A DNA stretch of 64,000 nucleotides, taken from the NCBI GenBank assembly GCA_040755995.1, contig JBFMAF010000031.1:83108-147107 (forward strand). The letters are read 5' to 3'. This document shows, piece by piece, positions 28,712 through 45,285 of the stretch. How positions within the stretch are numbered: the stretch's first letter is position 1; every line of letters begins with the position of its first letter. The DNA is from Acidobacteriota bacterium. Lineage in GTDB: Bacteria > Acidobacteriota > CAIWXX01. A program made the translations under genes and the position numbers. Under the pieces are notes generated by a model. The model worked only from the letters and a program-made list of their open reading frames with translations. It was not told the DNA's origin and made no database searches.

Positions 28712-29557
28712 ATGTACAAGCGTGTAATCGAAGGGGTGCGCGCGACGTTTCGGAGGCGGCATCCGATCGCCGATGGTAGAGGTACGCTGGTGTTGATCGG
28801 TGGGGCCGAAGACCGGAGTCGAAGCGGCCAGGTGATGAGCCGGCTCGTCGAGATCGCCAGGCCGAAGAGCGTCGCGGTCATTCCCACCGCCACCTCGCAG
28901 CCGTCCGAGCTCGGGCGTGAGTATCGGAACGCGTTCGTCGACCTGGGAGTCGGCGAGGTCACGGTCCTGCAGGTCCAACACCCTGATCAGGCCGACCGCC
29001 AGGAGAATCTGCAGGCGGTCGAGGAGGCAGAGCTGATCTTCTTCACTGGCGGGAACCAGTTCAAGCTGGTCGAGGCGCTGAAGGGTACGGCGTTGCTCGA
29101 CAGGGTTTTCAAGAAATACCACGAGGGTGCCACCATTGCGGGCACCAGCGCCGGCGCTGCCTCGGCCGGAGAGTTCATGATCGCCAACGGTGACAATCAC
29201 GGATTGGACAAGGGATCTGTCCGCTGCGAGAAGGGATTCGGTTTCCTGGAAAAAACCGTAGTGGACACGCACTTTGTCGAGCGCGGCCGGATTCACCGGC
29301 TGGCGCAGGTGCTGTCGAGCGGCATCGTCCGGCGAGGAATCGGACTCGCGGAGGACACAGCGGTCGTGGTTCACGCTGGAGCGTCGTTCGACGTCATCGG
29401 TGCGGGCTTCGTGACTGTGTTGAACAGCGAGGCGCTCTCGTTCTCCAACTATGATCAGGTCGGCGACCGCGAGCGACTCGCCGTCGATGGGATCCGCGTC
29501 GGCTTCCTGCCACCAGGCGTGTCCTTCGACTTGACGGCCTGGTCGATCACATCGTGA
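28712..29557 (+). CDS. cphB: Cyanophycinase (peptidase S51)
   Basis: LIGGAED, IPTAT, IFFTGGNQ, AGTSAGA (Ser nucleophile), VDTHF.ERGR..RL, GIGLAEDTA. Confidence 0.95.
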   Translation: MYKRVIEGVRATFRRRHPIADGRGTLVLIGGAEDRSRSGQVMSRLVEIARPKSVAVIPTATSQPSELGREYRNAFVDLGVGEVTVLQVQHPDQADRQENLQAVEEAELIFFTGGNQFKLVEALKGTALLDRVFKKYHEGATIAGTSAGAASAGEFMIANGDNHGLDKGSVRCEKGFGFLEKTVVDTHFVERGRIHRLAQVLSSGIVRRGIGLAEDTAVVVHAGASFDVIGAGFVTVLNSEALSFSNYDQVGDRERLAVDGIRVGFLPPGVSFDLTAWSITS

Positions 29558-29730
29558 GACGCGGAGACGCGAGGAAATTGGGCCACGTTGGGGTCTCCGC
29601 GTCCGCTGCGAGGCCCGCCCCTTCGGCCTCGCCGCCGCTAAGACTCGGCGAGCCGCGTCAACACCCGGCCACCTCGACCCGTGGCTATCAGCCATTCCAG
29701 CCCCTATAGTATATTTTCGATGGAGGTTGC

Positions 29731-31617
29731 ATGAGATACTACGAAATACGGAATCTTCGCTCGTTCTCCGGCCCGAACTACTACCTCGATTCACCGGCGA
29801 TAGTCTTCGACTTGGATATCGATCATGGCGGCCCCTTCGAGGCTTTGAGGGAAAGCGCCGTGGATCGCTTCCCTGTGCTCCGTTCCAGAACCATCGAAAC
29901 CCCGGCGGATCTTTTCGCGTTGACGCTGCTACAGGTCATCAGGCTCGACCTCGACCTCTTCGTCAGCAAATCCGCGGTCCACGTGATCGACGGAGCGGCC
30001 CGGATCGCAGCTGAGTACATCGATGAGGGTGTGGCCAAGGAGGCCGCGTATCTGGTCAGAGACTGGCTGTCCGCAGTCGCCGAGAAGAAGCCGTTCGACT
30101 TCGAGGGCAACATGCAAGGACTCCAGACCGATTTCGACAAGACGTTGTATGGCGGCCCGACTCTTTACTCCCTCCTCGAGGCCGCGATGAAGCGCTCGAT
30201 ACCGGTGCACTACCTGTTCGAAGAGAATCAGTTCCAGTGGGGATACGGCAAGAAACAGCTCCGGGGCCGATCCACCACCTTCCACACCGACGGCATCAAA
30301 GACACCGAATTCACCACCTACAAGGACATGGTCAAGGATTTCCTGCAGATGTGCGGATTCCCGACGCCCATCGGCAGGAACTGCTACTCGCTGAAGGAGG
30401 CTCTGGCGCAGGCGGAGCAGCTCGGCTTTCCGGTTGTCGTGAAGCCGGTGGCCGGGCACAAGGGGCAGGGCGTCACGACGAACGTCCGTTCGATGGACGA
30501 GCTCCGCAGCGCCTACCAGGCCGCCGAGCAATCGGCGCGGCAGGAGAAGGGGCACAATGACGGCGTAATCGTCGAGCAACAGATCGAGGGGACCGACCAC
30601 CGCCTCCTGGCTGTGAACGGCAAGTTCCTCGCCGCCCTCCAGCGCATCCCAGCATATGTTGACGGCAACGGCCACGACACGATCGAAACGTTGATCGAGC
30701 GCGAGAACGCGACGTCGGCCCGCGTCGACAATGCGCGATCGCCGCTTTGCAAGATCAAGACAGACGAGAATCTGATCGAGTTCCTGAAGCTACAGCGGCT
30801 CTCGCTCCGCTCCGTGCCCAAGCCGGGCGAGCGCATCTTCCTGCGCCGCGTCGCGAATATCTCAGCCGGCGGTGTCTCGATCAACGTCACCAGCAAGGTC
30901 CACCCGAAGAACGTGAAACTCGTCGAAGACATCGCTAGCTTCTTCAACCTGACGGCTCTCGGCATCGACGTGCTCGCGGGCGACATCAGCAAGCCGTGGA
31001 CCGACGGGGATTTCGGAATCATCGAGATCAACGCCGCGCCCGGCGTCTTCATGCACCTCACGCCCGCAATCGGAGACCCGCTCGACATCCCCGCGGCGAT
31101 CTTGCGATCGCACTTCCCCAAAGACGGGTCCGAGCGAATACCCATCGTTACCGGCAACAGGCTCTCGCTCAATTTCAGCCAGATGCTCTTCCGTGAGCTC
31201 CGCGCGATCCGGCCGGGCATTCAATTCGCGAGCCTCACGGAAGAGGGAATCCTTTTCAACGGCGAGTTCTTCTTCAAGAACCCGGTGCACGCGCAGAACG
31301 TCAAGATCATGCTTCGCCACCCGAAGCTCGATCTGGCCCTGTTCACACATCGCCGCGACGACATACTGGATTCGGGGATGCTCCATCGGGGGGCCGATCT
31401 CGTCATCCTGGAGGCTCCTGATAAAGAAGAGGAGGTCCTGAGACGAGACCTGCTGCCGGGAGGCATCCTCGTGGAGCTTGGAGGGCCGGAGATCGTGATC
31501 ACACGTGACGGACAGGCGCTGGGCTCTCGACCAATCGCCGGCGGCGAAGACAAGGACGGCGCGCTGCTCGACGCCTTGAAGCCGGCGTTGCCCGGGCTCG
31601 TCTCCAAGTACGACTGA
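29731..31617 (+). CDS. cphA2: Cyanophycin synthetase 2-like protein (beta-Asp-Arg dipeptide polymerase type)
   Basis: 628 aa; GPNYYLD.PAIVFD, YGGPTLY, QWGYGKKQ.RG..TTF..D; intact ATP-grasp (KPVAGHKGQGVT, DHRLL, ANISAGG, IEINAAPG); Mur-ligase P-loop absent (RIPIVTGN) and no lid domain. Confidence 0.85.
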   Translation: MRYYEIRNLRSFSGPNYYLDSPAIVFDLDIDHGGPFEALRESAVDRFPVLRSRTIETPADLFALTLLQVIRLDLDLFVSKSAVHVIDGAARIAAEYIDEGVAKEAAYLVRDWLSAVAEKKPFDFEGNMQGLQTDFDKTLYGGPTLYSLLEAAMKRSIPVHYLFEENQFQWGYGKKQLRGRSTTFHTDGIKDTEFTTYKDMVKDFLQMCGFPTPIGRNCYSLKEALAQAEQLGFPVVVKPVAGHKGQGVTTNVRSMDELRSAYQAAEQSARQEKGHNDGVIVEQQIEGTDHRLLAVNGKFLAALQRIPAYVDGNGHDTIETLIERENATSARVDNARSPLCKIKTDENLIEFLKLQRLSLRSVPKPGERIFLRRVANISAGGVSINVTSKVHPKNVKLVEDIASFFNLTALGIDVLAGDISKPWTDGDFGIIEINAAPGVFMHLTPAIGDPLDIPAAILRSHFPKDGSERIPIVTGNRLSLNFSQMLFRELRAIRPGIQFASLTEEGILFNGEFFFKNPVHAQNVKIMLRHPKLDLALFTHRRDDILDSGMLHRGADLVILEAPDKEEEVLRRDLLPGGILVELGGPEIVITRDGQALGSRPIAGGEDKDGALLDALKPALPGLVSKYD

Positions 31618-31647
31618 CCCGGCCTGAAGGTGAAAGGAAACGTAACT

Positions 31648-32811
31648 ATGCTGACTCTTTTCAGAGCGTGTGAGCTCTACGCGCCCGAAAGGCTGGGCAT
31701 CAGAGATGTTCTGATCGGCGCCGGCCGGGTTCTCGCCGTGGATCAACACATTGCCGAGCCCAAGGACGTGGCTTGCGAGGTCATCCCTGCTGATGGGCTG
31801 CGGATGATTCCGGGCCTCATCGATGTGCACGTGCACATCGCGGGAGCCGGAGGCGAGGGCGGGCCGTCGACACGGACTCCGGAGATGCAGCTGGGCCAGA
31901 TGCTGAAGGGCGGCATCACCAGCGTGATCGGTTCGCTCGGTACCGACGGCATGACGCGCTCGGTGGAGAGCGTCCTGATGAAGGCGAAGGCGCTCCGCCA
32001 GGAGGGCGTGTCCGCGTGGATCCTCACTGGCGCCTACCAGGCGCCTACACCCACTATTCTGGGCGATGCCGGCAGGGATGTGGCCATGATCGAGGAAATA
32101 ATCGGCGTGGGCGAGGTCGCCGTCTCCGACCACCGATCGTCATGTCCGACCGTGCCCGAGCTGGCGCGGATCGCGGCACACGCGCGTGTCGGCGGCATGC
32201 TCGGCGGCAAGGCCGGCCTGGTGCTCCTGCACATGGGCGACGCCCAGAAGCCATTCGACATCCTCTACCAGGTGGTGAGCTTCAGCCAGCTTTCGCTCGC
32301 GCAATTCCTGCCTACGCACTGCACCCGCAATGCGCACATCTTCCAGGAGGCCAAGGAATACGGAAAGCAGGGCTATGTAGATATCACGGCGAGCGCCTAC
32401 CCCTTCTTCCCCGACGACGAGGTGAAGCCGTCGAAGGCGATCGTGGAGCTGCTCAAGGCCGGCGTGCCGCTCGACCACATCACCATGTCATCGGATGGGT
32501 GCGGGAGCCTGCCTCGATTCGACGAGAAGGGAAACGTGGTGATGCTCGTGAGCGGCGAGCCCGATTCGATCTTTCGCGAGCTTGTCGAGGCCGTTCGCCA
32601 GGACGGGCTCCCACTCGAGCTGGCCCTCAAGGTGGTCACCTCGAACCCGGCCCGCATATTCAAGCTCCCGCGCAAGGGAAGCATCGCCGCCGGCTATGAT
32701 GCCGACCTCGTGCTCCTGGATAAGGAGGACCGGCCCTATCACGTCGTCGCCAACGGAGCGTTTTTCGTGAAGTACGCGGAGGTGCTCCGGAGAGGCACCT
32801 TCGAAAAGTAG
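31648..32811 (+). CDS. iadA: Isoaspartyl dipeptidase (beta-aspartyl peptidase)
   Basis: PGLIDVHVHIAGAGGEGG..TRTPE, LGTDG, TGAY, GEVAVSDHRSS, HMGD, PTH, SSDG.GSLP. Confidence 0.96.
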   Translation: MLTLFRACELYAPERLGIRDVLIGAGRVLAVDQHIAEPKDVACEVIPADGLRMIPGLIDVHVHIAGAGGEGGPSTRTPEMQLGQMLKGGITSVIGSLGTDGMTRSVESVLMKAKALRQEGVSAWILTGAYQAPTPTILGDAGRDVAMIEEIIGVGEVAVSDHRSSCPTVPELARIAAHARVGGMLGGKAGLVLLHMGDAQKPFDILYQVVSFSQLSLAQFLPTHCTRNAHIFQEAKEYGKQGYVDITASAYPFFPDDEVKPSKAIVELLKAGVPLDHITMSSDGCGSLPRFDEKGNVVMLVSGEPDSIFRELVEAVRQDGLPLELALKVVTSNPARIFKLPRKGSIAAGYDADLVLLDKEDRPYHVVANGAFFVKYAEVLRRGTFEK

Positions 32812-33241
32812 CCTTGAGGGTGTCTCAGCAAGTCGGGTCCTTCCTGTCCCCACGTCTCCCACGTCCGGTTGGCTGCCCATCGTGACTTGGACGTGAACGA
32901 TGCGTTTGACCTCCCTCCGCTCACGTTCAGGTCGACGTGTGCATCTACGAATGCGATGTCGCCGAACTGAGGCGCCGGGCCCGGGATTGCACAATGCCGA
33001 AGAATAGTCGAGAATTGGGTTCAGCCCATCCAGGAGGCGTATCGACGTGAACGGCGCCCGATGCCCCAGGCGACTTGAGACGACGAAGATGTTGCGCCTG
33101 AGTCAAGTTCTTGGACCGGAGCGCCGCTGCCACTCTCTACTCTCCACTCCCTGCACTCTACGCGAGGCCCGGCCGGCTCGGCCTCGCATGATACATCGGT
33201 CCGAGGCCGCGCCTCGTCAGGGGTAAGTCATAGACCCGATC

Positions 33242-35884
33242 ATGAAAGCGTATCTCGACGATCCGATCCACCCCGGCCCGCTCCGCGTCCTCGACATCCG
33301 CGTCATGCACGGGGCGAACTACTTCAGCGGGGGACCCGTCGTCATCATGAGGCTCGACCTCGGCGAATACGACGAGGTCTTCACGAACCAGATCCCGGGC
33401 TTCCTCGAAAGACTCCAGGCGCTGCTCCCAACGCTTGCGGAGCACCACTGCTCGGAGGGGAAGACTCTGGGGTTCTTCTCGCGCGTGAGTGAGGGCACGC
33501 TGCTCGGACACGTCACCGAGCATGTCACGATCGAGCTCCAGACCCTGGCGGGCATGGACGTCGCCTACGGCAAGACGCGCAGCACCTCGGCGAAGGGTGT
33601 CTACAACGTCGTCTATCGTTTCTTCGACGAGGTGGCGGGTGTGGTCGCCGGCAAGGCCGCCGTGAACATGATGAACTCCATCCTGCTTGGGCGCCCGTTC
33701 GACACGGCCTCGGCGATTACTACGCTTGTAGAAATACGTGAGAAGAGGCTGCTGGGTCCCAGCACCCAGGCTATCGTCAAGGAGGCCAGGCAGCGCGGCA
33801 TCCCATTCCTGCGGCTCGACGAGTACAACCTGGTGCAGCTCGGCACAGGCAGGTACCAGAAGCGCATCCGGGCCACGATCACGTCCGACACCGACTACCT
33901 CGCCGTGGAGACGGCGGACAACAAGCGGTTGACCACCCTGATGCTGACGGAGGCCGGCATCCCCGTGCCGGAGACCGTCGTGGCCGAGCGGCTGGAGGAG
34001 GTGATCGAGTTCCAGGCAAGGCTGAAGCAGCCTCTGGTGATCAAGCCGCGCGAGCGCCACATGCGCAAGGGTGTCACCGTTCGGCTTGATTCCGACGAAG
34101 AGATATCAGAAGCCTTCGGCTGGGCCAGGCAGTTCGATGAGGCCGTTCTCGTACAGCCCTTCGTCAGCGGCAACACCTACCGCGTCCTCGTTATCGACTA
34201 CCAGATGGTCGCCGCCGCCCAGGTGACCCCCCCTGTGGTTGTAGGAGACGGGCGGCACAGAATCACGGAGCTGATCGAGATTCTCAACCGGGAGCCGGAC
34301 CGGGGAGTCGGCGACAAGTCGAAGCTGACGCGAGTGGAGGTGGATGAGATCACGCAGCGGATCCTGCGCGGGCGCGGGTACAGCCTCGACACGGTCCTCC
34401 CGGCAGGCGAGACGCTGCCGTTGAAGCTTTCAGGGAGTCTGAGGAGCGGCGGAAGCGCCCGCGACGTCACCGACGAGGTCCATCCGTTTAACCGGTTCCT
34501 GGCCGAACGCGCCGCCAAGGTCATCGGCCTGAATGTCGCCGGCCTAGATATCGTCGCGCCATCTCTGAGCACGCCGATTCTCGAGAACGGCGGCGTCTGC
34601 ATCGGCGCGACCGCGGCGCCCGACCTGCGGCTCCATCTCAGCCCGACTCACGGCGCGGTGCGCGCCGTGGCAGGGCCGATCGTGGATATGCTGTTTCCCG
34701 CCGGAAGCAAGACGCGCATCCCGGTCTTCTCCGTCACCGGCACCCTGGGCAAGACCACCACCGTCAACCTGCTCGCCCATTGCCTCAAGCTCGCCCGATA
34801 CCACGTCGGGTTGACGTCGACCGAGGGCCTGTCTATTTCGGACAAGATGCTCATGAAGGGCGACATGACGTACCCCGAACACGTCGCCCTGGTGTTGAAG
34901 GACCCCACGATCGACTGCGCCGTCCTCGAGACGGCACGCGAAGGGATCCTGCGCCGCGGCATCGGATACGAGCTCGCCGACTTCGGCATCGTGCTGAACA
35001 TGTACGAAGACCACGTCGGGAGCGATGACATCAGGTACGTCGAGGACCTTGCCTACGCGAAGTCGGTCGTGGCCGAGCAGGTGTACGACGACGGCTACGC
35101 CGTCCTCAACGCTGACAACGACCTGGTGCTGGACATGCGGGATAGGGTCAGAAGCCACCTGGCGCTCTTCTCCCGATCCTACTCCAACCGCGACGTGCGC
35201 GAGCATGCGGACGCCGGCGGCCTCGGTGTAGTCCTCGATCGCGGCGACATCCTGGTGCTCAAGGACCGCAACACGTTGCGCGTCACCAACATTGACGAGA
35301 TCCCTCTCACGCACCAGGGCAAGGCTCACCAGAACTACGACAACATCCTTGCCGCAGTCGCCGCGCTGTTCGCCTTCCAGATTCCTCTGGAGACGATCCG
35401 CTACGGCCTGCGGACGTTCTACCCCGACCCGGCAAAGCTGCCCGGCCGGATGAACGTCATTCAGATGGGCGACTTCACGGTTCTTGTCGACTACGCGCAC
35501 AATAGGGAGAGCTACCTGGAGCTCAAGGAGTTTCTCCGGCACTTCACGCAGAAGAAGCTGGGTGTGATCGATGCTCCGGGCGACCGCAGCGATCACGAGA
35601 TCATCGGCCTGGGCGAGATCGCCGCGCGCACCTACGACGAGGTCTATGTCTACGAGGGGTTCGACAGGCGCGGCAGGCCGATCGGCGAGATCGCGGAACT
35701 GCTCAAGCATGGTCTCGTCACGGCGGGGTTCGCCGAGGACCGCATCACGACCTTCATGGAGCCGGAGGCGGCGTGGAGGAGAGCGCTGGGGCGCGGAGGC
35801 CCGGAGCGGATGGTGGTGATCCTGACGGGGCGCGCCGAGAAGACGCTCCGGGTGATCGAGGCGCACGGAGGCAATGCAAAGTGA
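33242..35884 (+). CDS. cphA: Full-length cyanophycin synthetase paralogue with degenerate ATP-grasp (G) domain
   Basis: 880 aa N-G-M architecture; Cx19HxxEH intact; G motifs altered (KPRERHMRKG, GSLRSGG, IGATAAPD); M domain TGTLGKTTT, ETAR, EDH, PGRMN, DYAHN. Confidence 0.9.
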   Translation: MKAYLDDPIHPGPLRVLDIRVMHGANYFSGGPVVIMRLDLGEYDEVFTNQIPGFLERLQALLPTLAEHHCSEGKTLGFFSRVSEGTLLGHVTEHVTIELQTLAGMDVAYGKTRSTSAKGVYNVVYRFFDEVAGVVAGKAAVNMMNSILLGRPFDTASAITTLVEIREKRLLGPSTQAIVKEARQRGIPFLRLDEYNLVQLGTGRYQKRIRATITSDTDYLAVETADNKRLTTLMLTEAGIPVPETVVAERLEEVIEFQARLKQPLVIKPRERHMRKGVTVRLDSDEEISEAFGWARQFDEAVLVQPFVSGNTYRVLVIDYQMVAAAQVTPPVVVGDGRHRITELIEILNREPDRGVGDKSKLTRVEVDEITQRILRGRGYSLDTVLPAGETLPLKLSGSLRSGGSARDVTDEVHPFNRFLAERAAKVIGLNVAGLDIVAPSLSTPILENGGVCIGATAAPDLRLHLSPTHGAVRAVAGPIVDMLFPAGSKTRIPVFSVTGTLGKTTTVNLLAHCLKLARYHVGLTSTEGLSISDKMLMKGDMTYPEHVALVLKDPTIDCAVLETAREGILRRGIGYELADFGIVLNMYEDHVGSDDIRYVEDLAYAKSVVAEQVYDDGYAVLNADNDLVLDMRDRVRSHLALFSRSYSNRDVREHADAGGLGVVLDRGDILVLKDRNTLRVTNIDEIPLTHQGKAHQNYDNILAAVAALFAFQIPLETIRYGLRTFYPDPAKLPGRMNVIQMGDFTVLVDYAHNRESYLELKEFLRHFTQKKLGVIDAPGDRSDHEIIGLGEIAARTYDEVYVYEGFDRRGRPIGEIAELLKHGLVTAGFAEDRITTFMEPEAAWRRALGRGGPERMVVILTGRAEKTLRVIEAHGGNAK

Positions 35885-35885
35885 G

Positions 35886-35936
35886 AAATGCAAAAGGCGG
35901 AATGCAAGAGGAGCATTGCCCCCGGGGGCGATGTAT
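35886..35936 (+). repeat. Imperfect ~50-bp direct repeat, copy 1 (AATGCAA-type heptamers + GCCCCCGG..GCGATGT)
   Basis: Similar to 41581-41630; related heptamers also at 27012-27030. Confidence 0.6.
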
Positions 35937-36072
35937 GCACATGTCCGTGAAATAGTGGGTCACCAAACGCCAGCTTGCCAACAGAATTGTTGGTCAACTA
36001 TGTTGTTGTCGGCGGCGTTGAATGCCGGCTGAGCGCGATTCTGGTCCCCGCGCAAGACCGCCGATAGTCGCG

Positions 36073-38013
36073 CTACCTTGCGTCCTCCACTCTGAAAACG
36101 CCGGTGTCGGTGGCGGCATAGACGACGTTCGGTTCGGCGCTGCTGCTGGCCAGTGCACGCACGTACCTCGAGGCGGGCCGGCCGAGTCCGCGGCTCATCG
36201 GCAGCCAGGTCTTTCCACCGTTGGTGCTCCTGTAGACGCCCTGGCCTTGCGTTCCCGCATAGAGAACGTTGCTCGCGGTGGGCGATACCAACAGACACGA
36301 CACCGCACGGCCCTTCATGATGGTGTTCCAGCTTTCACCCCTATCGGTGCTCTTCCACAGTTTCTTCGAGGTCCTTCCTTCGCACGCATAGACAGTCGAG
36401 GGCGATCCAGGGTCGAGAGCGAGGCCCCATGAGAGGTCCCACGATTCCGTCCCGACTACAAGCATACAGGTCCAGGTAGATCCTCCGTCGGTGCTTTTCG
36501 CCGCGCAGACTCCGTCTTCACGGGCGGCATAGACGGTGGTGGGCATCGCGGGATCAATCTCGATGTGCGACACGGTGCCGCCCGAGAAGGTGACGCTGCT
36601 CTTCCAGCTATGCCCTCCGTCAATGCTCTTGAACACCTGCTCGTAGATCGACGCATACAGCGTGGTTGGCGTCTGGGGGTCAACTGCTATCAAGTCGACC
36701 GCTCTGGGCATCTGTTTCCAGGTGGCCCCGCTATCGGTGCTCTTGAAGGTCCCGCTTCCTCCGCACGCGTAGACGACGTCCGGGTCGCTGGGGTCGATCG
36801 TGATGCTTCGGAGCCGCGTGAGCTTGGAACACTTGCCGATTGAACTGTTCCAGCTTCCTCCGCCGTCTGTCGTCTTGAAGACCCCTGCCGCTGTTCCAAT
36901 GTACACGACGCCGGGTCGTGAAGGGTCGACGGCTAGAGCGTCGACTTGCCATTCTTTGATGCCGGCGTTGGCGGTCGACCATGTGGTTCCACGGTCGGTA
37001 CTCTGGAGGACCCCTGATATCGTCGCCGCGTAGAGTAGATCCGAGTTTGTGGGATCAGCGACGATCCGTCGCACGGAGTCAGCTGGCAAGCCGGAGATGC
37101 GAGTCCACTTTTTGCCGCTCGTTGTCGTGACGTAGGCGCCATCCTCCGTGGCCGCATACAGGATGTCGGGACTGGCCGGGTCCACTGTCAGCCGCGGGAC
37201 CTGATAACTCCTTTCGTCCGGGAACTCCCCGGCGAATTCCCAACGGGCACCCGCGTTCGTGCTCTTGAACAGGCCATGTGAACACACGCCCACGTAAACG
37301 ACATCAGGATTCGAAGGCGAGATACATATCCCCCCAACGCCGTAGATACGGGCAGGGAGGCCCCGATCGGATGCGACCCAGGTCGCGCCGCCGTCCGAGG
37401 TCTTGAAAATGTTGGGGTCTCCCGTGCCCGCATAGGCCACGTCTGGATTCCGAGGGTCAATTGCAATGGTCCCGACCCAGCCATCGTTCTCGAACGAGCG
37501 AGTCCGCGACCAGGTGGTGCCGCCATCCGTGCTCCTGACGACGCAATCCCAGCTTGTGGCGGCGTACATCGTGGAGCTGCTCGAAGGACTGACCGCGAAG
37601 CAACTGACACGGGACTTGCCGAAATGACCTTCGGAGAGCAGCCTGTTCCAACCCCTGCCCCCGTTGGTACTCTTGTACAACGCCGCATCGTGCAGCGCGT
37701 AAACCGTCGTCGCGACCGCGGGATCGACGACCAACTGGTCGTATACGGTGCCTGCGGTCGCCGGCAGGATCCTCCACGTCGCGGCACTGTCCACGCTCTC
37801 ATAGAAGGTCCCTGCCGATGCGTACAGGATGTTCGGGCGGGAGGGAGCTATGGCGAGGTCTGTGATGTTGCCGCCGTCCGGACCTACGTCTCGCCAGGCG
37901 GGCACTTGCTGCGAGCCTGCTTGAACCTTGTTCCCAAGTACCACCAGGCTCGCGGAAAGAACGAACCGTATCGCTACGTTCCATGAGGCGCGGTTGGGAA
38001 GTCGTCTAATCAC
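36073..38013 (-). CDS. Secreted BNR/Asp-box repeat beta-propeller protein (YCF48/sortilin-like)
   Basis: Many (K/R)S.DGG.(T/S)W Asp-boxes with DP..P..LYA repeats; signal-like N-terminus; start GTG 38013 (coupled to upstream stop) or ATG 38028. Confidence 0.9.
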   Translation of the reverse strand: MIRRLPNRASWNVAIRFVLSASLVVLGNKVQAGSQQVPAWRDVGPDGGNITDLAIAPSRPNILYASAGTFYESVDSAATWRILPATAGTVYDQLVVDPAVATTVYALHDAALYKSTNGGRGWNRLLSEGHFGKSRVSCFAVSPSSSSTMYAATSWDCVVRSTDGGTTWSRTRSFENDGWVGTIAIDPRNPDVAYAGTGDPNIFKTSDGGATWVASDRGLPARIYGVGGICISPSNPDVVYVGVCSHGLFKSTNAGARWEFAGEFPDERSYQVPRLTVDPASPDILYAATEDGAYVTTTSGKKWTRISGLPADSVRRIVADPTNSDLLYAATISGVLQSTDRGTTWSTANAGIKEWQVDALAVDPSRPGVVYIGTAAGVFKTTDGGGSWNSSIGKCSKLTRLRSITIDPSDPDVVYACGGSGTFKSTDSGATWKQMPRAVDLIAVDPQTPTTLYASIYEQVFKSIDGGHSWKSSVTFSGGTVSHIEIDPAMPTTVYAAREDGVCAAKSTDGGSTWTCMLVVGTESWDLSWGLALDPGSPSTVYACEGRTSKKLWKSTDRGESWNTIMKGRAVSCLLVSPTASNVLYAGTQGQGVYRSTNGGKTWLPMSRGLGRPASRYVRALASSSAEPNVVYAATDTGVFRVEDAR

Positions 38014-40078
38014 GAATTGTGCGAACATAGATGCCGTCCTCCGTGCCGGCGTAGAGGACCGGTTGCTCAGCGTCAACGGTAATCGAATTGACCCATGTGT
38101 ACGAGCCACTTGTGGGCAGGCCACGGTTGATGGGATGCCAATTCGTTCCACCGTCCAGGCTGCGCCAGACTCCGGATTCGTCTGAGGCCACGTACATCGT
38201 GCCAGGAGCGTCAGGGTCGAACGCCACTTGGGTAAACCATCGATAAGAGTCAGTCTCCGGGAACACCATTGACCAATGGCCGTCTCCCTGCTTCCACCGC
38301 AACAACGTCCCCCCGGCTATCACAAAGAAGACGCCGGGGTTGTGGGGATCGGGTGCTATCTGTTTGAAGCCCCAAGAAGGGGCCAGAACAGGACTGAATG
38401 GGCTCCAGCACTTCCCATCATCCTCGCTCCTCCACAGGCGGGCCTTCTCCTCATGGCCCGCATCCGTCGACACGCCGGCGTAGAAGACACCCGGGCGCCT
38501 GGGATCGAAGACGAGGGGGCGCACATCTCCTGCGCCTGGCAGGTCAGAGCTCAGAAGGTGCCAATGGTCCCCGCGGTCGAGCGACTCCAGGAGGGCTCCA
38601 TCCACCATGACCAGAAGGCGCCTGGGATTGGCCGGGTCGATCGTGAACGCCTCGAACGTAACCTCGTGCCAGGGCTGAGTCGTGGCCGTCCAGCTTTTCC
38701 CTCCATCTGTGCTTCTATAGATGAGCTCTGTCGCACTTCGCGAGTACAGCGTAAGGGTGTTTTTCGGGTGCACGAGAAGCCCGCCCAGACCGTAGTAGTC
38801 AGGGTATTCTCGAAGGCCCCCGCTGGCCAGTCCCCAGGTGGACCCGCCGTCACGGCTCTTCAAGATGAGCCCGCCGACTGCGTACACTGTTCCACCGTGC
38901 TTGGGACTGGCGACGACCTCATTCACGCCGAATGAAAGACCCTTGCCTGTAAGCTCCCAGGATCTGCCGCCGTCGGTGCTCCGAAGAATTCCGCTGCCGT
39001 CTGAAATCGCGAGTACGGTGTCGGCCGAGGCCGCGTCCACCTGCAGGTGTATCCGTCCGGTACTGGGGGCGCCCGGAATCGGGACGGCAAGCCACGTCGC
39101 TCCGCCCCGTGTGCCGCGATAGACCTCACCGGTCACGGTTACTACATAGAGCACGTCGGGGTCTGACGGACTGACAACAACGTCGTACATTTCCACCGCG
39201 GGCAGCCCCCTGCTGAGGCGTACCCATTCTGTGCCCCCATTCGTGGTCCTGTAGAGGCCTCGATTCGTGGCAGCCCATACAGTGTCACTTCGTCGCGAAT
39301 GCGCACTTAGCGCGCTGACGAGGAGACCCTGACCGCCGGCAGGCAATCCGTTGTTCACGGACACCCATTTCACACCGGCATCCGTGCTCTTGAAGACGCC
39401 GCCAGTGGTACCGACGTAGACGTTGCTCGGGCTGGCCGGATCCACCTTTATCGAGCGGGGTTCATGGTCGGCGTCGAACTCGAAGATCCGCCGCCAGTTG
39501 TCACCGCCATCGGCCGATTTCCATACCTCCGGATAGTAGTAGTCTATAGCGTACATCACGTCGTGGTTGATGGTATTGACCGAGAGTGTGCTGGCCAGGA
39601 TATCCAGGTCCACCCAGGTGCGGCCGCCGTTCCGAGTCCTGCATAGCCCGGCCTCCTTCCCGTCGTTCCATGCCATGAACAGCGTCTTGCGATCGACCGG
39701 ATCCACGACGAGTTCGTATACGGAGCTCCAGTAGGTGTCCGCATCCGGCATCGCCCCATTCCAGGTCTCGCCCACCTCGGTGCTCTTGGAACCCCAATAG
39801 GAACCCTCACCCGGCACAGCGCTGTCCCAAGTCTGGCCTCCATCGGTGCTCTTGATGAGCCGATCGTAGCCTTCGACGGCCCATACCAGGCCCGGCTGGC
39901 TGGGAGACGCGGCGACGACCGCGAGACGCCCTCCCGCGTCGACCTTGGTCCATACGTTCACTCCTGCAGCGGAGCTCGAGCTGGTCGCTGCGAGCACGAT
40001 CAGAACCCGCAGCACCCCAATCAGGGCTGCAGCGTGCTTCCGGCAGGATTTCCGCACTCGTGAAAACGCATCAAACAT
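38006..40078 (-). CDS. Secreted BNR/Asp-box repeat beta-propeller protein (paralogue of 36073..38013)
   Basis: Repeated S.DGG..W motifs; GAGGAGGA RBS before ATG 40078; signal peptide. Confidence 0.9.
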   Translation of the reverse strand: MFDAFSRVRKSCRKHAAALIGVLRVLIVLAATSSSSAAGVNVWTKVDAGGRLAVVAASPSQPGLVWAVEGYDRLIKSTDGGQTWDSAVPGEGSYWGSKSTEVGETWNGAMPDADTYWSSVYELVVDPVDRKTLFMAWNDGKEAGLCRTRNGGRTWVDLDILASTLSVNTINHDVMYAIDYYYPEVWKSADGGDNWRRIFEFDADHEPRSIKVDPASPSNVYVGTTGGVFKSTDAGVKWVSVNNGLPAGGQGLLVSALSAHSRRSDTVWAATNRGLYRTTNGGTEWVRLSRGLPAVEMYDVVVSPSDPDVLYVVTVTGEVYRGTRGGATWLAVPIPGAPSTGRIHLQVDAASADTVLAISDGSGILRSTDGGRSWELTGKGLSFGVNEVVASPKHGGTVYAVGGLILKSRDGGSTWGLASGGLREYPDYYGLGGLLVHPKNTLTLYSRSATELIYRSTDGGKSWTATTQPWHEVTFEAFTIDPANPRRLLVMVDGALLESLDRGDHWHLLSSDLPGAGDVRPLVFDPRRPGVFYAGVSTDAGHEEKARLWRSEDDGKCWSPFSPVLAPSWGFKQIAPDPHNPGVFFVIAGGTLLRWKQGDGHWSMVFPETDSYRWFTQVAFDPDAPGTMYVASDESGVWRSLDGGTNWHPINRGLPTSGSYTWVNSITVDAEQPVLYAGTEDGIYVRTIRD

Positions 40079-40166
40079 CTCGTCCTCCTCTCGTTGACTC
40101 CACCAAACCGCTGCGTTGGGCTCCCGATGCGGGAGGCGGGCGCGGGGATTCGTCCGCCCATGAGCG

Positions 40167-40263
40167 CAGGACCAGTCCACCCACGCGCGCCTCCCTCCGC
40201 AGAATCCTCAGCATGCTCAATTCCCTCCAACCTTCATACGCGCAACCTGGAGGCGAAACCGCT
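40167..40263 (-). repeat. 97-bp duplicated upstream element, copy 1
   Basis: Ungapped match to 41478-41574; 40-bp core with 3 mismatches. Confidence 0.85.
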
Positions 40264-40305
40264 GCTCCGCAGCCGGTGAGGTCTGCGCGTGGTGACGTTC
40301 GGTGA

Positions 40306-41445
40306 TCATCTCAGGCGGTCTATCACTTCATCCAGTCTGTGCAGATAAAGAGTCCTGTGATTCCTGTACAGGCACGGATCCCAGAGAACTCCGTAGTATC
40401 CTTCACGCCGCACGATCCCCCGGAGCTCGTCAAGATTTCTCGCCCACACTTCCTCCTTCACGGGCATGCACCAAGGTTCTTCGTCGAGACTGGTTGCCCA
40501 GAAGTCCTTCGCGCCGTCGGTGTTGGGAATCAACGGGGTGTTCCATCTCCTGCGCTTGCCCTTCGCGGCGAGAATGGTCTGCCTCTGCTCGATCCAGTCG
40601 CCGACCGAGCCGATGTTGTGGACTGAAACCACGCCCACCCTGCTGTTCAGGCCCAACTCCAGGAATCGGGAGGCCTGGTTGTAAGAGAAGACCGTCATCC
40701 AGACTCTGGTCTTGGGAAGCGCGGTGAGCTGCAGCTCCTGCCTGTTGTCCTCGTCTTGATAGTAAGCGTACAACGAGTCCAGGATGCGGCTCTCCGCATC
40801 GAGAGCCCAGACGGGGGGCTGATTGCCTATCTCCCAGATCACCCTGTTCCTTGCCTTGGGATCCAGAGCTCTTACGAGCATGTCAATGAGCCGCCGTCCG
40901 AAATGCTCTGTGTCCGCGATGGAGGCCTCAGGTTTGAGGCCGCCCCATCCTTGCCAGTTATTTAGCTTGTTGTACGGGTGGTCCCCGAAATTCGGGCAAG
41001 TCGTTTTCAGCAGGGCACCGTATTCGCGGAGGCAGATTATCGGCGTGATCCCGCAGTCGAGTAGTCTGGTAATCCGGCCGCGAAACCTCTCGCTGAACTC
41101 ATCCGACAGCTTTGAGACGTCGAAGCCGCTGCTGTCGTGGGTGTAAGGAAAATAGTCTGCGCACGGGAACATGCCCTCGCCCTCGCCACATCGCGGTATG
41201 TAGTAGGTCCACATGTCCACAATGAACACGCGCACCGCCGGCACACGCCGCGCCGGAGCTGCGAAGTGTTTCTCCAGGATCTCATCGAATTCCTCATCGC
41301 TCCAGCACCAGATGTCACCGAGTACGTCTATCGAAGACTTCCTGCTGTCAATTGGCGCGGCAAGGCGCCCTGTGTCCTCCGCCCACGACGAATGCCAAAT
41401 GAGCACTGCTCCCAGGCCCAACAGCCACCAAGCTAACCTGCACAT
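40306..41445 (-). CDS. Secreted hypothetical protein, possibly glycoside hydrolase clan GH-A TIM barrel
   Basis: Signal peptide MCRLAWWLLGLGAVLIWHSSWA after GGAGG RBS; VRVF, GITPII.L, VIWEIGNQP, VSVH, PLIPNTDG. Confidence 0.65.
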   Translation of the reverse strand: MCRLAWWLLGLGAVLIWHSSWAEDTGRLAAPIDSRKSSIDVLGDIWCWSDEEFDEILEKHFAAPARRVPAVRVFIVDMWTYYIPRCGEGEGMFPCADYFPYTHDSSGFDVSKLSDEFSERFRGRITRLLDCGITPIICLREYGALLKTTCPNFGDHPYNKLNNWQGWGGLKPEASIADTEHFGRRLIDMLVRALDPKARNRVIWEIGNQPPVWALDAESRILDSLYAYYQDEDNRQELQLTALPKTRVWMTVFSYNQASRFLELGLNSRVGVVSVHNIGSVGDWIEQRQTILAAKGKRRRWNTPLIPNTDGAKDFWATSLDEEPWCMPVKEEVWARNLDELRGIVRREGYYGVLWDPCLYRNHRTLYLHRLDEVIDRLR

Positions 41446-41477
41446 GCCTCGCCTCCATCGCATGCCCGGCGACCTGC

Positions 41478-41574
41478 CAGGTCCGGTTGATCCACGTGCT
41501 CCCCCTTCCAGAGACTCCTCAGCATTCTCAACGACCTCCAACCCTCATACGCGCAACCTGGAAGGGAAACCGCT
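41478..41574 (-). repeat. 97-bp duplicated upstream element, copy 2
   Basis: Ungapped match to 40167-40263. Confidence 0.85.
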
Positions 41575-41580
41575 AATGCA

Positions 41581-41630
41581 AAATGAAAAAGGCAAAATGC
41601 CAAGGGGGGATCGCCCCCGGCGCGATGTCT
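41581..41630 (+). repeat. Imperfect ~50-bp direct repeat, copy 2
   Basis: Similar to 35886-35936. Confidence 0.6.
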
Positions 41631-41664
41631 GTTTCCTGGCTCCTGAATTCCTCTTCACACACTC

Positions 41665-41700
41665 TTGCCGCACTTCCGGGGTGATGGTAGTATTTCGATG
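41665..41700 (+). promoter_or_regulatory. Leaderless sigma70 promoter of the TIR pair
   Basis: TTGCCG-17-TAGTAT with extended TG; ATG 41701 lies 7 nt downstream; no RBS. Confidence 0.6.
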
Positions 41701-42099
41701 ATGAAAAGGATCTTTCTGAGCCACGCCGCTCGCGACCACCAGATGGCCTCGAAGCTTGCCGGACGATTGCGAGAAGAGGGGTTTGATGTGTTCCTGCAAG
41801 AGGAGCTGCCCGCCGGAGCCAACTTCGCCCTCGAGGTTGGCCGTAAGCTGGAGAAGGCCGACATCATGGTGGTCTTGCTCTCGCCCGATGCGGTGGCATC
41901 GAGCTGGGTACAGCGCGAGATTGAATACGCGCTCACATCCCGGCGGCTCAAGGGGCGCTTGGTGCCGGTGCAGGTCAGGCCGACCAAGGATATCCCGTGG
42001 ATACTTCGGCACCTTAATTTCCTCGATCTACGCGGGGAGGAGGCCGGGAAGGTCGACAAGGTAGTCGCGGCCCTCAAAGAGATTGATGACGCCGCGTAG
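41701..42099 (+). CDS. Stand-alone TIR domain protein
   Basis: IFLSHA.RD, G.DVF, VVLLSP..V.S.WV.REIEYA (catalytic Glu), LVPV. Confidence 0.92.
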   Translation: MKRIFLSHAARDHQMASKLAGRLREEGFDVFLQEELPAGANFALEVGRKLEKADIMVVLLSPDAVASSWVQREIEYALTSRRLKGRLVPVQVRPTKDIPWILRHLNFLDLRGEEAGKVDKVVAALKEIDDAA

Positions 42100-42616
42100 G
42101 CTGGGATCCAGGACTTCGATTCCACGGGAGGTCTTTCTCTCACACTCGGATCGCAACAGGGCGTTCGCGGCCCGGCTGGCCGGGGTTCTCGCACGACACG
42201 GAGTGCCCGTATGGTACAGCCGCCGTAGCCTGCTCGGCGCGCAGCAGTGGCACGATGAAATAGGCAGGGCCTTGCGACGTTGCGACTGGTTCATCGTCGT
42301 CTTGTCACCGCATTCGGTCCGGTCTGATTGGGTCAAGCGGGAGCTGGTATTCGCCTTGAGCCACGCGCAATACCGTGACCGCATTGTCCCAGTGATCCAC
42401 AAAGCCTGTGACCACGAGGCCTTGTCATGGACACTCGGGGGCTTTCAGATGATCGATTTTAGCGACGACTTCGATGCAGGCAGCCGACAGCTGTTGCGCG
42501 CATGGGGCCTGGGCTACTCCCCGGCCGACCATGTTGCGTCGAAGGGAGGCTCTGCAGGAGGCAGGGCTGCGCCGGTTCGTGAAGGGGTGACGAAGTCCGA
42601 ACGGAAACCGGGCTGA
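42086..42616 (+). CDS. Stand-alone TIR domain protein
   Basis: VFLSHS, GVPVWY, W.DEI..AL..CD.FIVVLSP.SV.S.WVKRELVFA (catalytic Glu), IVPV, Q.IDF; overlaps the first TIR's stop. Confidence 0.92.
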   Translation: MTPRRLGSRTSIPREVFLSHSDRNRAFAARLAGVLARHGVPVWYSRRSLLGAQQWHDEIGRALRRCDWFIVVLSPHSVRSDWVKRELVFALSHAQYRDRIVPVIHKACDHEALSWTLGGFQMIDFSDDFDAGSRQLLRAWGLGYSPADHVASKGGSAGGRAAPVREGVTKSERKPG

Positions 42617-42666
42617 GGTCGGCTCCGAGAAGGCTATCGCTTTGGCCTGAGCCGTTCGCAGCCGCC

Positions 42667-45285
42667 TCAGGCTTCGAACTTCTCCTTGTACTCGTACACC
42701 ACGCTGATCGCCTTGCGGACGCGGCCTGTCATGTACATCATGAGGTCTCCGGCCTCGGCCTTCTTGAGGGCCGCATCGAGCGCCTCCCATTCGTCCGGGA
42801 CCTCGCTGATTCGATCAGCCGGGTACTTGACGCTCGCGAATCCGTCTCGCAGCACCTTCAGGATCTCGCCGGGCTTGCGCCCGCGAAGATCCTTGTCCTC
42901 GTAGAGGATGACCTCGTCGGCGTACTTCGCCGAGGTCAAGGCGATCTGCGTGATGTCCTCGTCGCGGCGGTCGCCGACGGCGTCGAGGATGACAAGGCGG
43001 CGCTTGTAGTTCAGCCGCGAGATCAGGTCGAAGATGCTGGCGACGGCGAATGGGTTGTGCGCATAGTCGATCAGCACATCGAAGTCGCGGACGCGCAGGA
43101 TGTTCATGCGGCCCGGCGCCTGGGATGGTGAGGGGAAAAACGAACTCAACCCGAGGCGGATCTCGTCGACCTTCACGTGGAGCGCATAGGCGGCAGCGGT
43201 GGCCGCCATGGCATTCTGGATGTTGAAACCGGCCTTCCCTTCCATGGTGATCGGGATCTCGTACGCCTTCGCCACGGGCACAACGAGATCGCCTTCGAGG
43301 ATGGTGATGTAGCCGTTTTGGTAGACGACGGCAAGCCCGCCGGCTTCGACATGTTCCTTGACGGTCGGATTCTCGGGGTTCACGCTGAACCAGACGACGT
43401 GGTCTTTGCAGCGGCTCTGCATCCACCGGCACCACTTGTCGTCGGCGTTGAGCACGGAGTAGGCGCCGGGCCGCACGACCGACGGGACGATCGACTTGAG
43501 CTTCGCCAGGTCCTCGATTGTCTCGATATATCCGAGCCCGATGTGGTCTTCGGTGACGTTGAGGCAGATGCCGACATCCGCGGTGCCGTAGCCGAGGCCG
43601 TTGCGCAGCAGCCCGCCGCGGGCCGTCTCGAATACGGCACAATCCACGGTCGGATCCTGCAAGATCATGCGGGCCGATCGCGGGCCGCTCATGTCGCCGG
43701 CTATGATCAGCCGGTCTCGCACGTAGATGCCGTCGGTACAGGTCATGCCTACGCTCTTGCCCGTGTTTTTCATGATATGGGCGATCAGTCGCACGGCGGT
43801 GGTCTTGCCGTTGGTACCCGTGACGCTGACGATGGGGATGTCTGAAGGAGAGCCCGGCGGGAACAGCATGTCGACGATGGGGGCGGCCACGTTGCGCGGC
43901 TTGCCTTCGGATGGGCTCAGATGCATCCGGATGCCGGGCGCGGCGTTCACCTCGATCACTGCCCCGCCGTTCTCGGTGATGGGGGTCTCCAGCGTGGGCG
44001 CGATGATGTCGATGCCGGCGATGTCGAGCCCGATGTACCTCGCCACGCGCTCCACCATGAACTTGTTCATCGAATGTACCTTGTGCGTCACGTCGATGGC
44101 GGTGCCGCCGGTGGAAAGATTCGCAGTGCGCTCCAGATAGAAAACCTCGCCCTCGCGCAGGATGGTGTCGAGCGTGCAGCCGGTCTCAAGCAACAGGCTC
44201 TCAGTGTTCGGGGTGACCTTCAGCAACGTCATCACGTTCGAGTGCCCGTGGCCGCGCCGCGGGTTCTTGTTCTCGGCGTCGATGAGCTCCTTGATCGTGT
44301 GCTTCCCGTCCCCGACGACGTTGGCCGGGATCCGCTGAGCGGCCGCGATGAACTTGCCGGCGATCACGAGGACGCGGTAGTCGTTGCCCACGCGCCTCTC
44401 CTCGACGACGATCTTCTTCGAAAGCTCCTTCGCACGATCAAAAGCCGCTTTGAGCTGATCCTCGTTCTTGACGCCCACGGTCACTCCCTTGCCGTGGTGA
44501 CCGTCGAACGGCTTGACCACCACGGGATAGCCGATGTCGCGGGCGTCTTCCAGCGCCGACGAGAACTTGGTGGCGATCGTTCCCTTGGGCACAGGTATGC
44601 CGTTGTCCTCGAGTATCATCTTCGTCAGCCGCTTGTTCCCCGCCGTCTCGACCGCGATGAGACTCGTCTGCGAGCTCAATGTAGCCTGGATCTTCTTCTG
44701 GTACTTGCCCTCTCCAAGCTGCACCAGGTTGTAGTCGTCGAGACGAATTACGGTGATCTTGCGCCGCCGGGCCTCGTCGACAATCGCCATCGTCGACGGC
44801 CCGAGGTAGTGCTCGTCGCGAATGTTCTTGATCTCCGTGATCACGGCGTCCACGTCGATTTTTTCCTCAGGCACGCCGCGAATGATGTCCTGTACGATCC
44901 GGACCGTTTCCTCTCCCGCGTAGATGCCCGCTTCTTCCACCCAGTACTCGAACACAATCTGGTGGACCCCCTTCTGCTTCGTTGGGTAGGACTTGCAGTA
45001 GTACGCGTCCATGTAAGAGAGCCACTGGAGCTCGATCGCAACGTGCTCGATTACGTGCGTGAGCGGGCTCCCCTCCCTCAAGCGCATCAAGAGTCCCCCC
45101 TCGCTGTCGGTGGCGCATCGATGCTCGGAGAGGCTCGGAATCAATGTCACCAGGCGATCGATGAACCCGGGGATCTGCGTCGTCAGCGTATCGGCGTGGT
45201 CCTCCAAATCGAGGACCATCCGGATGACCGGGTTCTCGCTCCAGAAATTCGCCCCCTGCAGCGCCCTGATCTCTAGTATCTTCAT
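42667..45285 (-). CDS. cphA: Cyanophycin synthetase (canonical CphA1)
   Basis: 872 aa; Cx19HxxEH; KPFDGHHGKGVT, DYRVLV, ANLSTGG, IEVNAAPGIRMH; VTGTNGKTT, ETARGG, EDHIG, PGRMN, DYAHNP. Confidence 0.96.
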   Translation of the reverse strand: MKILEIRALQGANFWSENPVIRMVLDLEDHADTLTTQIPGFIDRLVTLIPSLSEHRCATDSEGGLLMRLREGSPLTHVIEHVAIELQWLSYMDAYYCKSYPTKQKGVHQIVFEYWVEEAGIYAGEETVRIVQDIIRGVPEEKIDVDAVITEIKNIRDEHYLGPSTMAIVDEARRRKITVIRLDDYNLVQLGEGKYQKKIQATLSSQTSLIAVETAGNKRLTKMILEDNGIPVPKGTIATKFSSALEDARDIGYPVVVKPFDGHHGKGVTVGVKNEDQLKAAFDRAKELSKKIVVEERRVGNDYRVLVIAGKFIAAAQRIPANVVGDGKHTIKELIDAENKNPRRGHGHSNVMTLLKVTPNTESLLLETGCTLDTILREGEVFYLERTANLSTGGTAIDVTHKVHSMNKFMVERVARYIGLDIAGIDIIAPTLETPITENGGAVIEVNAAPGIRMHLSPSEGKPRNVAAPIVDMLFPPGSPSDIPIVSVTGTNGKTTAVRLIAHIMKNTGKSVGMTCTDGIYVRDRLIIAGDMSGPRSARMILQDPTVDCAVFETARGGLLRNGLGYGTADVGICLNVTEDHIGLGYIETIEDLAKLKSIVPSVVRPGAYSVLNADDKWCRWMQSRCKDHVVWFSVNPENPTVKEHVEAGGLAVVYQNGYITILEGDLVVPVAKAYEIPITMEGKAGFNIQNAMAATAAAYALHVKVDEIRLGLSSFFPSPSQAPGRMNILRVRDFDVLIDYAHNPFAVASIFDLISRLNYKRRLVILDAVGDRRDEDITQIALTSAKYADEVILYEDKDLRGRKPGEILKVLRDGFASVKYPADRISEVPDEWEALDAALKKAEAGDLMMYMTGRVRKAISVVYEYKEKFEA

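Follow-up and report, generated by a model that had tools for sequence, protein, structure and literature searches.

The locus described here lies in a 64,000-nucleotide stretch of an Acidobacteriota genome (contig JBFMAF010000031.1; hereafter the window), and it raises the question of why one genome should carry three cyanophycin synthetase-like genes whose active sites differ. Four genes on the plus strand encode the exo-cyanophycinase CphB, a CphA2-type protein, the isoaspartyl dipeptidase IadA and a divergent synthetase paralogue that we call CphA*, while a canonical cphA1 lies further downstream on the minus strand. From sequence comparisons we favor, with moderate confidence, the reading that CphA* is a stand-alone endo-cyanophycinase, which would make primers and chain ends for a recycling cycle built on a non-cyanobacterial CphA2.

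The cphA* gene (33242-35884, plus strand) encodes a long-form protein of 880 amino acids, which scores 999 bits against the cut-off of 850 for the family TIGR02068 and is modeled with the full N-G-M fold of CphA1 (pLDDT 92.7; TM score 0.88 and 42% identity to 7wae). Its active sites were mapped by alignment in SuCphA1/TeCphA1 (Synechocystis/Trichodesmium) numbering, with residue roles taken from PMC9262961 and PMC9427784. The N site was complete, comprising the zinc motif Cx19HxxEH together with H57, F67, R70, E87, Y110, S603 and E607, the last of which is a residue of the M core that belongs to the N-site groove; position 90 was Thr. The G site retained K220, K261, R309, D431 and R458 and carried the changes H267M, G268R, R323V, N394S, S396R, E450G, N452T and G456D. 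Seven of the ten residues used to test for an intact G site (H267, R309, R323, N394, S396, D431, E450, N452, G456 and R458) were thus altered, with R309, D431 and R458 retained, and by this test the protein falls outside CphA1. E450 coordinates Mg, and activity depends on H267, R323 and N394 (PMC9262961, PMC9427784); because all four are altered, the CphA* of the window is predicted not to add Asp. The M site retained K499, T500, T522, E558, R561, R566, D585, H586, R731 and H748, and was changed at N497L, G540Y and G562E. These findings bear out the initial annotation of this DNA, which had described an intact N-domain zinc motif, a largely intact M domain and degenerate G motifs. The window copy is a long form whose G site is broken at both Mg-site residues, E450 and N452. 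Among the eight CphA* proteins that co-occur with a CphA1 it is the only one to have lost both, and a tie between this loss and the presence of CphA1 was therefore rejected.

CphA* belongs to a conserved family, the members of which are annotated in databases as cyanophycin synthetase and occur in Acidobacteriota, Bacteroidota, Phycisphaerales, Cloacimonadota, Sumerlaeota, Muiribacteriota and other groups. The best 120 protein matches comprised 110 of the CphA* type, the window's own included, and ten canonical proteins. A locus scan with the single protein found no loci, while an alignment-based scan succeeded, and the best 80 of its 210 confirmed stretches comprised 79 cphA* loci and one canonical locus. 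We based statements on N-site invariance on the 110-protein set, in which H79, E82, H83, E87, G99, T101, R102 and E607 were retained in every protein, H57, C59, S60 and F67 in 109 of 109, and R70 in 108 of 109. Residues were further compared in 30 long and 47 short CphA* proteins, 37 canonical CphA1s and the eight partner CphA1s that share a genome with CphA*, after four fragments shorter than 660 amino acids had been dropped; three of the 47 short rows are cut by contig ends, and about half of the 37 canonical rows come from two genera. Here R323 was lost in all 77 CphA* proteins, and E450 and N452 were retained in 63 and 62 of them, compared to 45 of 45 CphA1s. The mean identity among CphA* proteins was highest in the N domain (0.61-0.63; G domain, 0.50), and among the 37 canonical CphA1s it was lowest there of the three core domains (N, 0.52; G, 0.61; M core, 0.58). 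The N site alone is retained across the whole CphA* family, as is evident in members such as P0079, P0083, P0087 and P0108, which have lost E450, the lid and M residues.

These data also bear on whether CphA* might be a decaying duplicate without a selected function, a possibility raised with the initial annotation that we regard as extremely improbable. Many members do show variation in, or loss of, G and M residues, and in one genome there is a further copy disrupted by frameshifts, but the family has intact reading frames, a near-invariant N site in relatives at 41-66% identity across several phyla, and a conserved gene order, so that neutral decay is contradicted by the conservation of the orthologues. 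The frameshifted copy is a second cphB-cphA2-iadA-cphA* set in pieces (G042:C10:14453-20393) in a genome that also has an intact set, and it reflects either decay or long-read error.

The M lid is absent from much of the family. The 110-protein set contained 82 long forms and 28 proteins without the lid (for these 28 the gene ends are not visible). Seven of the 79 cphA* genes in the locus scan run off the contig, and the 72 complete genes divided into 28 long forms and 44 without the lid, which end near 710-765 amino acids. We rejected assembly artefacts as the source of the lidless forms, since these 44 end at a stop codon and the seven contig-cut genes had been set aside; no separate lid gene was detected in the lidless loci. 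Deletion of the lid strongly lowers the activity of TeCphA1 (PMC9427784). The earlier idea of complementary active sites thus fails, as far as complementation through the M site goes, for most of the family, given the 44 lidless genes among the 72 complete ones. In a FastTree phylogeny of 118 rows over the first 740 residues, from which 13 near-duplicate canonical rows had been dropped and which was rooted on nine CphA2 proteins, the CphA* proteins grouped together on a long branch (with a local support of just 0.59), sister, among the sequences used, to the clade of the window CphA1 (support 1.0). The phylogenetic check proposed with the initial annotation, which also named CphA3/CphA3' (the tandem cphA paralogues of Betaproteobacteria), was thereby carried out for CphA*, CphA1 and CphA2. 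Lidless CphA* were interleaved with long forms, suggesting several losses of the lid, although these were not formally counted.

The proposed partner of CphA* is the product of cphA2 (29731-31617, plus strand), a predicted CphA2-type dipeptide polymerase of 628 amino acids. It matched the solved CphA2 proteins 7ta5 and 8fxh, its best solved relatives, with E values of ~1e-144, compared to ~1e-68 for CphA1. It had no Pfam N-domain or Mur-ligase match, no Cys in the N domain and a truncated M domain without a P-loop, confirming the earlier description of a protein with an intact G site that lacks the M-domain P-loop and the N-domain zinc motif. Alignment to 8fxh showed that the G site and the dipeptide-site residues D362, R389, N393 and S395 are retained and that there is no Arg at CphA1 position 458; the G-site and dipeptide-site residues were present in 118-120 of 120 CphA2-like relatives. 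In StCphA2 these four residues have been proposed to bind beta-Asp-Arg (bioRxiv 2023.04.15.537035), and R458 binds free Asp in CphA1 (PMC9427784). The protein thus looks like a dipeptide polymerase and not like one half of a divided CphA1 that would add Asp, a candidate that we disfavored because the dipeptide-site residues are retained and R458 is absent. It agreed with CphA2 in every sequence test applied, and it resembles GcCphA2 (7ta5) and StCphA2 (8fxh/8fxi) in its truncated M domain, in lacking the N motif and in having equivalents of T163 and R308 as well as of the dipeptide-site residues. It differs from them in having Glu at D212 and in the setting of its family, which occurs in Acidobacteriota, Bacteroidota and other groups beside iadA and cphA*. 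CphA2 polymerizes beta-Asp-Arg and has no N-type primer-making site (PMC9262961, bioRxiv 2023.04.15.537035); its N domains lack the hydrolase motif (PMC9262961), and StCphA2 was assayed with a primer (bioRxiv 2023.04.15.537035). It has been described as cyanobacterial (PMC10206079, bioRxiv 2023.04.15.537035, PMC9262961), and within the passages cited here CphA2-like residue patterns outside the cyanobacteria are mentioned once, for Bacillus horikoshii (PMC5532821). Nine genomes (G073, G076, G080, G081, G098, G106, G123, G133 and G136) each have two CphA2-like genes, and in G073 and G133 a copy of ~630 amino acids adjoins iadA and one of ~670 stands alone. A 922-residue protein, P0186, joins CphA2-like sequence to a peptidase S51 domain and is a possible CphB-CphA2 fusion.

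In the window, cphA2 is flanked by cphB (28712-29557, plus strand), which encodes an exo-cyanophycinase of peptidase family S51 (TIGR02069, 207 bits against a cut-off of 126.6; PF03575), and by iadA (31648-32811, plus strand; TIGR01975, 444 bits against 331). We assigned CphB, IadA and both long CphA proteins to families by scores above the NCBIfam cut-offs. This association extends beyond the window. Among 79 other genomes with cphA*, which are metagenome-assembled genomes of unstated completeness, 72 had a CphA2-like match and two more a piece of one at a contig end, 74 had CphB above the cut-off, 73 had IadA (72 above the cut-off), and six had a canonical CphA1. Because the other three genes were found in more than 90% of these genomes, the absence of CphA1 from 73 of them is not explained by incompleteness. 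The order cphB-cphA2-iadA-cphA* was found in 13 of the 79 loci, in one of which cphB is present only in part, and direct comparison confirmed 20 unlinked CphA2-like genes at 43-56% identity, ten of them with iadA nearby. A survey of 401 genomes of the phylum, in which two to three candidates were scored per genome and kin are not independent, found CphA* in seven and CphA2 in eight, with both in seven; about 48 other genomes had CphA1 without CphA*. The conserved unit is CphA2 with CphA*, accompanied by CphB and IadA, and not a set of three synthetases. A three-way synthetase was rejected as the conserved unit because CphA1 is present in only six of the 79 genomes, and the division of labor envisaged in the initial annotation is therefore supported as a CphA2/CphA* pair acting through the N site but not as a three-way arrangement. 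In 15 of the best 80 loci, cphA* is immediately preceded by a gene for PepE, a dipeptidase that belongs, as CphB does, to the S51 family (L031, L039, L044, L045, L056, L071, L074, L075, L092, L094, L097, L098, L100, L101 and one more). These loci are mostly from Bacteroidales that carry cphA2 elsewhere, all five proteins tested scored above the PepE cut-off, and PepE may be a fifth member of the pathway.

In the cycle that we propose, CphB would release beta-Asp-X dipeptides, which IadA would split when nitrogen is needed and which CphA2, having no primer-making site of its own, would re-polymerize. CphA* would cut the polymer into short primers and provide extra chain ends for CphA2, which would also speed CphB, and the G and M cores of CphA* would be kept as a scaffold and polymer-binding surface. 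In the lineage of the window, de novo synthesis of polymer would also be carried out by a CphA1, which may have left primer-making to CphA*; in the carriers in which CphA1 was not found, the dipeptide would be obtained by scavenging or from some other source. The N site of CphA1 is known to cut cyanophycin into tetramer primers, and SuCphA1 with inactive G and M sites (G-M-) and the isolated N domain each gave primer-independent synthesis in trans (PMC9262961); CphB and IadA act in degradation (PMC10206079). A broader version, which we consider doubtful, would place a widespread cycle without CphA1 in uncultured Bacteroidota, Acidobacteriota and Planctomycetota, with the three activities of CphA1 split over separate genes. 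CphA2 would polymerize, CphA* would cut primers and, in its long form, also make beta-Asp-Arg, so that the pair would synthesize de novo, and a surviving CphA1 would have handed primer-making to CphA*, its own zinc site silenced by G99C.

Several observations weigh against a role of CphA* as an endo-cyanophycinase in such a cycle. The cphA2 gene lay within the DNA fetched around cphA* in only 22 of the 79 loci, and one genome (G323) has CphA2 without CphA*, together with a CphA1. Nor does this reading explain where the 73 of 79 genomes that lack CphA1 would obtain the dipeptide. Since an isolated N domain is sufficient in vitro (PMC9262961), the retention of 730-880 amino acids needs a further reason, and the N site of SuCphA1 is slow (PMC9262961). 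The invariance of the N site in the scanned loci is partly circular, because one of the two seed patterns of that scan contained the zinc motif; the 110-protein set was not seeded that way. Moreover, the ATP site of the G domain largely persists in the 110 proteins (R309 in 110, D431 in 109, R458 in 108, K261 in 107 and K220 in 100), with E450 and N452 each retained in 95, and the long forms, including the window copy, retain most M residues (K499 and E558 in 82, R731 in 80, and H586 and H748 in 78 of 82).

The persistence of R309, D431, R458 and K261, each in 107-110 of the 110 proteins, could also mean that the G site has been re-purposed, with the loss of R323 and the gain of D456 making a basic amino acid, instead of Asp, the acceptor, such that beta-Asp-Arg or a variant polymer would be made. 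G456D is found in 110 of 110 CphA* proteins, and the active ligase GshF likewise has no His at position 267 (PMC9427784). We nevertheless judge this very unlikely, as E450 and N452 are each lost in 15 of the 110 proteins, and both in the window copy, while position 396 is Arg or Lys in 101 of 110, and a bulky substitution there, S396W, abolishes SuCphA1 activity (PMC9427784).

The retained M residues, in turn, suggest that the long form might also be an Arg ligase, the M site of which would attach Arg to Asp, either free or at the end of a chain, and thereby feed CphA2, making the pair a two-gene de novo synthetase; lidless forms would have lost this activity and depend on scavenging. K499, T500, E558, H586, R731 and H748 are present in 78-82 of the 82 long forms and in the window copy, this activity would explain how 73 of the 79 genomes synthesize polymer although they lack CphA1, and engineered SuCphA1 heterodimers of G-M+N+ and G+M-N- subunits work (PMC9262961). 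Against this, the 44 of 72 complete genes without the lid have the same partners, N497 is replaced and G562E fixed in 30 of 30 long forms, R561 and D585 are retained in only 21 and 17 of these 30, compared to 45 of 45 CphA1s, and CphA2 is without R458, which binds free Asp in CphA1. An Arg ligase activity therefore appears unlikely to us.

The window CphA1, an optional partner, is encoded by cphA1 (42667-45285, minus strand), and scores 1149 bits against the TIGR02068 cut-off of 850. All of its listed G and M residues are canonical and its zinc ligands C59, H79 and H83 are intact, as is E82, but it carries the changes S60A, F67L, G78T, E90W, G99C, R102Y, Y110H and E607S, of which G78T, G99C, R102Y and E607S remodel the groove of its N site. 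We retrieved 120 relatives of this protein, the 13 closest at 66% identity or above. Eight CphA1s were found to share a genome with CphA* (the window's and those of G050, G061, G063, G064, G067, G068 and G077), which form one clade on the tree. All eight retain C59, H79, E82 and H83 and all have G99C, an aromatic residue in place of R102 and a residue other than Gly at position 78; R70 is lost in seven of the eight (the window's retains it) and E607 in six. By comparison, all 37 control CphA1s retain G99 and R70, and R70A lowers the primer-independent activity of SuCphA1 (PMC9262961). The earlier description of a CphA1 with intact G and M sites and drifted N-domain surroundings is thus confirmed, and the drift extends to all eight co-occurring CphA1s. 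The remodeling of the groove is one evolutionary event in which the zinc ligands were retained. It fits a hand-over of primer-making, in which a putatively weakened CphA1 N site would stand beside a dedicated CphA*, and we speculate that C99 serves as a fourth zinc ligand. A metagenome scan with the window CphA1 returned a single locus, L229, in which recC, recB and recD follow the gene and the sequence ahead of it amounts to just 228 bp, so that it is uninformative on linkage. In 17 genomes of the phylum a protein of 570-700 amino acids that matches the M part only adjoins a canonical cphA1 (G004, G022, G039, G148, G160, G172, G193, G208, G229, G259, G302, G365, G376, G391, G424, G438 and G470); at E 1e-45 no such protein was seen in the cphA* genomes.

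The groove drift in all eight co-occurring CphA1s would also be consistent with a mainly non-catalytic CphA* that forms a hetero-oligomer with CphA2 or CphA1 and acts there as a subunit, granule binder or ATP-sensing regulator, its zinc site serving to bind polymer. This comes nearest to the view taken in the initial annotation. The entire fold is retained, the polymer- and ATP-binding residues of the G domain are largely kept while acceptor-site residues have fixed changes, and these enzymes dimerize through the G domain (bioRxiv 2023.04.15.537035). However, the general base E82 is present in 110 of 110 CphA* proteins, which binding alone would not require, since the E82Q mutant binds polymer (PMC9262961), and CphA1 is missing from 73 of the 79 genomes. 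We regard a chiefly non-catalytic role as distinctly unlikely.

Read as an endo-cyanophycinase, CphA* can be set beside several known systems. It resembles CphA1 (SuCphA1 7lg5/7txv, TeCphA1 7wac/7wae) in its N-G-M fold, its score above the TIGR02068 cut-off, its Cx19HxxEH site and its groove residues, and it differs at H267, R323, N394, S396, E450, N452 and G456, with most relatives also lacking the M lid, so that it is predicted not to polymerize. It parallels the engineered SuCphA1 G-M-N+ mutant and the isolated N domain, in which the N site alone is active and primes a primer-dependent synthetase in trans (PMC9262961). CphA* is proposed to act alike but, unlike that construct, constitutes a natural family with a gene of its own. 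Changes in the expression of CphA1 cannot shift its balance between synthesis and cutting (PMC9262961), whereas a separate cphA* gene would allow this. Two neighboring cphA paralogues are likewise described from Betaproteobacteria and from Tetrasphaera (PMC5178258, PMC10687191), in passages that contain no active-site analysis. The betaproteobacterial pairs were reported without cyanophycinase, whereas the partners in the present locus include CphB, IadA and a true CphA2. We found no paper in the open literature on a natural N-only CphA or on a cphB-cphA2-iadA-cphA* operon, key subscription papers being outside the search. New here are a long CphA* in which neither Mg-site residue remains and its association with a clade of CphA1s that have a remodeled N groove.

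If CphA* is indeed a dedicated endo-cyanophycinase, it would be the natural counterpart of a G-M-N+ construct so far known only as an engineered control, with a level set apart from synthesis, and the range of CphA2 would extend well beyond the cyanobacteria. Many genes annotated as cyanophycin synthetase in metagenome-assembled genomes would be predicted non-synthetases, and surveys of producers would be inflated accordingly; where carriers without CphA1 obtain beta-Asp-Arg would become a question. Because a shortage of primers held back the yield of cyanophycin in E. coli about two-fold (PMC9262961), a natural primer-maker would also be a candidate tool.

The five genes of the locus and their active-site patterns, as originally described, were confirmed by coordinates, family scores and residue mapping, and the pattern is not a chance one, because it recurs in relatives at 41-66% identity. 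The host genome is 99.8% complete and its only cphA-like genes are these three; a second cyanophycinase above the cut-off lies elsewhere in it (G000:C8:187150-187908). The plus-strand genes had been described as converging on cphA1. The strands are indeed opposite, but the convergence is not direct, since 6.8 kb (35885-42666) with five genes outside the system, which the initial annotation had passed over, separate cphA* from cphA1: two BNR/Vps10-repeat genes and one gene without a family match, all on the minus strand, and two TIR genes on the plus strand. Among the 79 loci, cphA1 was near cphA* in three, none of which has this gap; in L027 the two genes converge directly, 183 bp apart, and in L029 and L034 cphA1 follows directly behind cphA* on the same strand. 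Between iadA and cphA* there is a gap of 430 bp (32812-33241), compared to mostly less than 200 bp in relatives, and cphA* may be transcribed separately from iadA in this window. No promoter-like site was found in this gap, and a promoter and terminator scan gave no more matches than expected by chance.

The two TIR genes are small, tandem, stand-alone TIR_2 genes (41665-42616, plus strand) that lie directly at the 3' end of cphA1 and show a weak likeness to Thoeris ThcB4, far below the cut-off. The gene without a family match is a 411-residue open reading frame (40306-41541, minus strand), of which residues 39-411 have no Pfam or NCBIfam match. A search for repeats returned coding repeats and the paralogues themselves, as well as a 97-nt direct repeat, 80% identical between its copies (40167-40263 and 41478-41574), which spans the 5' ends of two genes on the minus strand (38006-40180 and 40306-41541) and is perhaps the shared leader of an inserted gene set.

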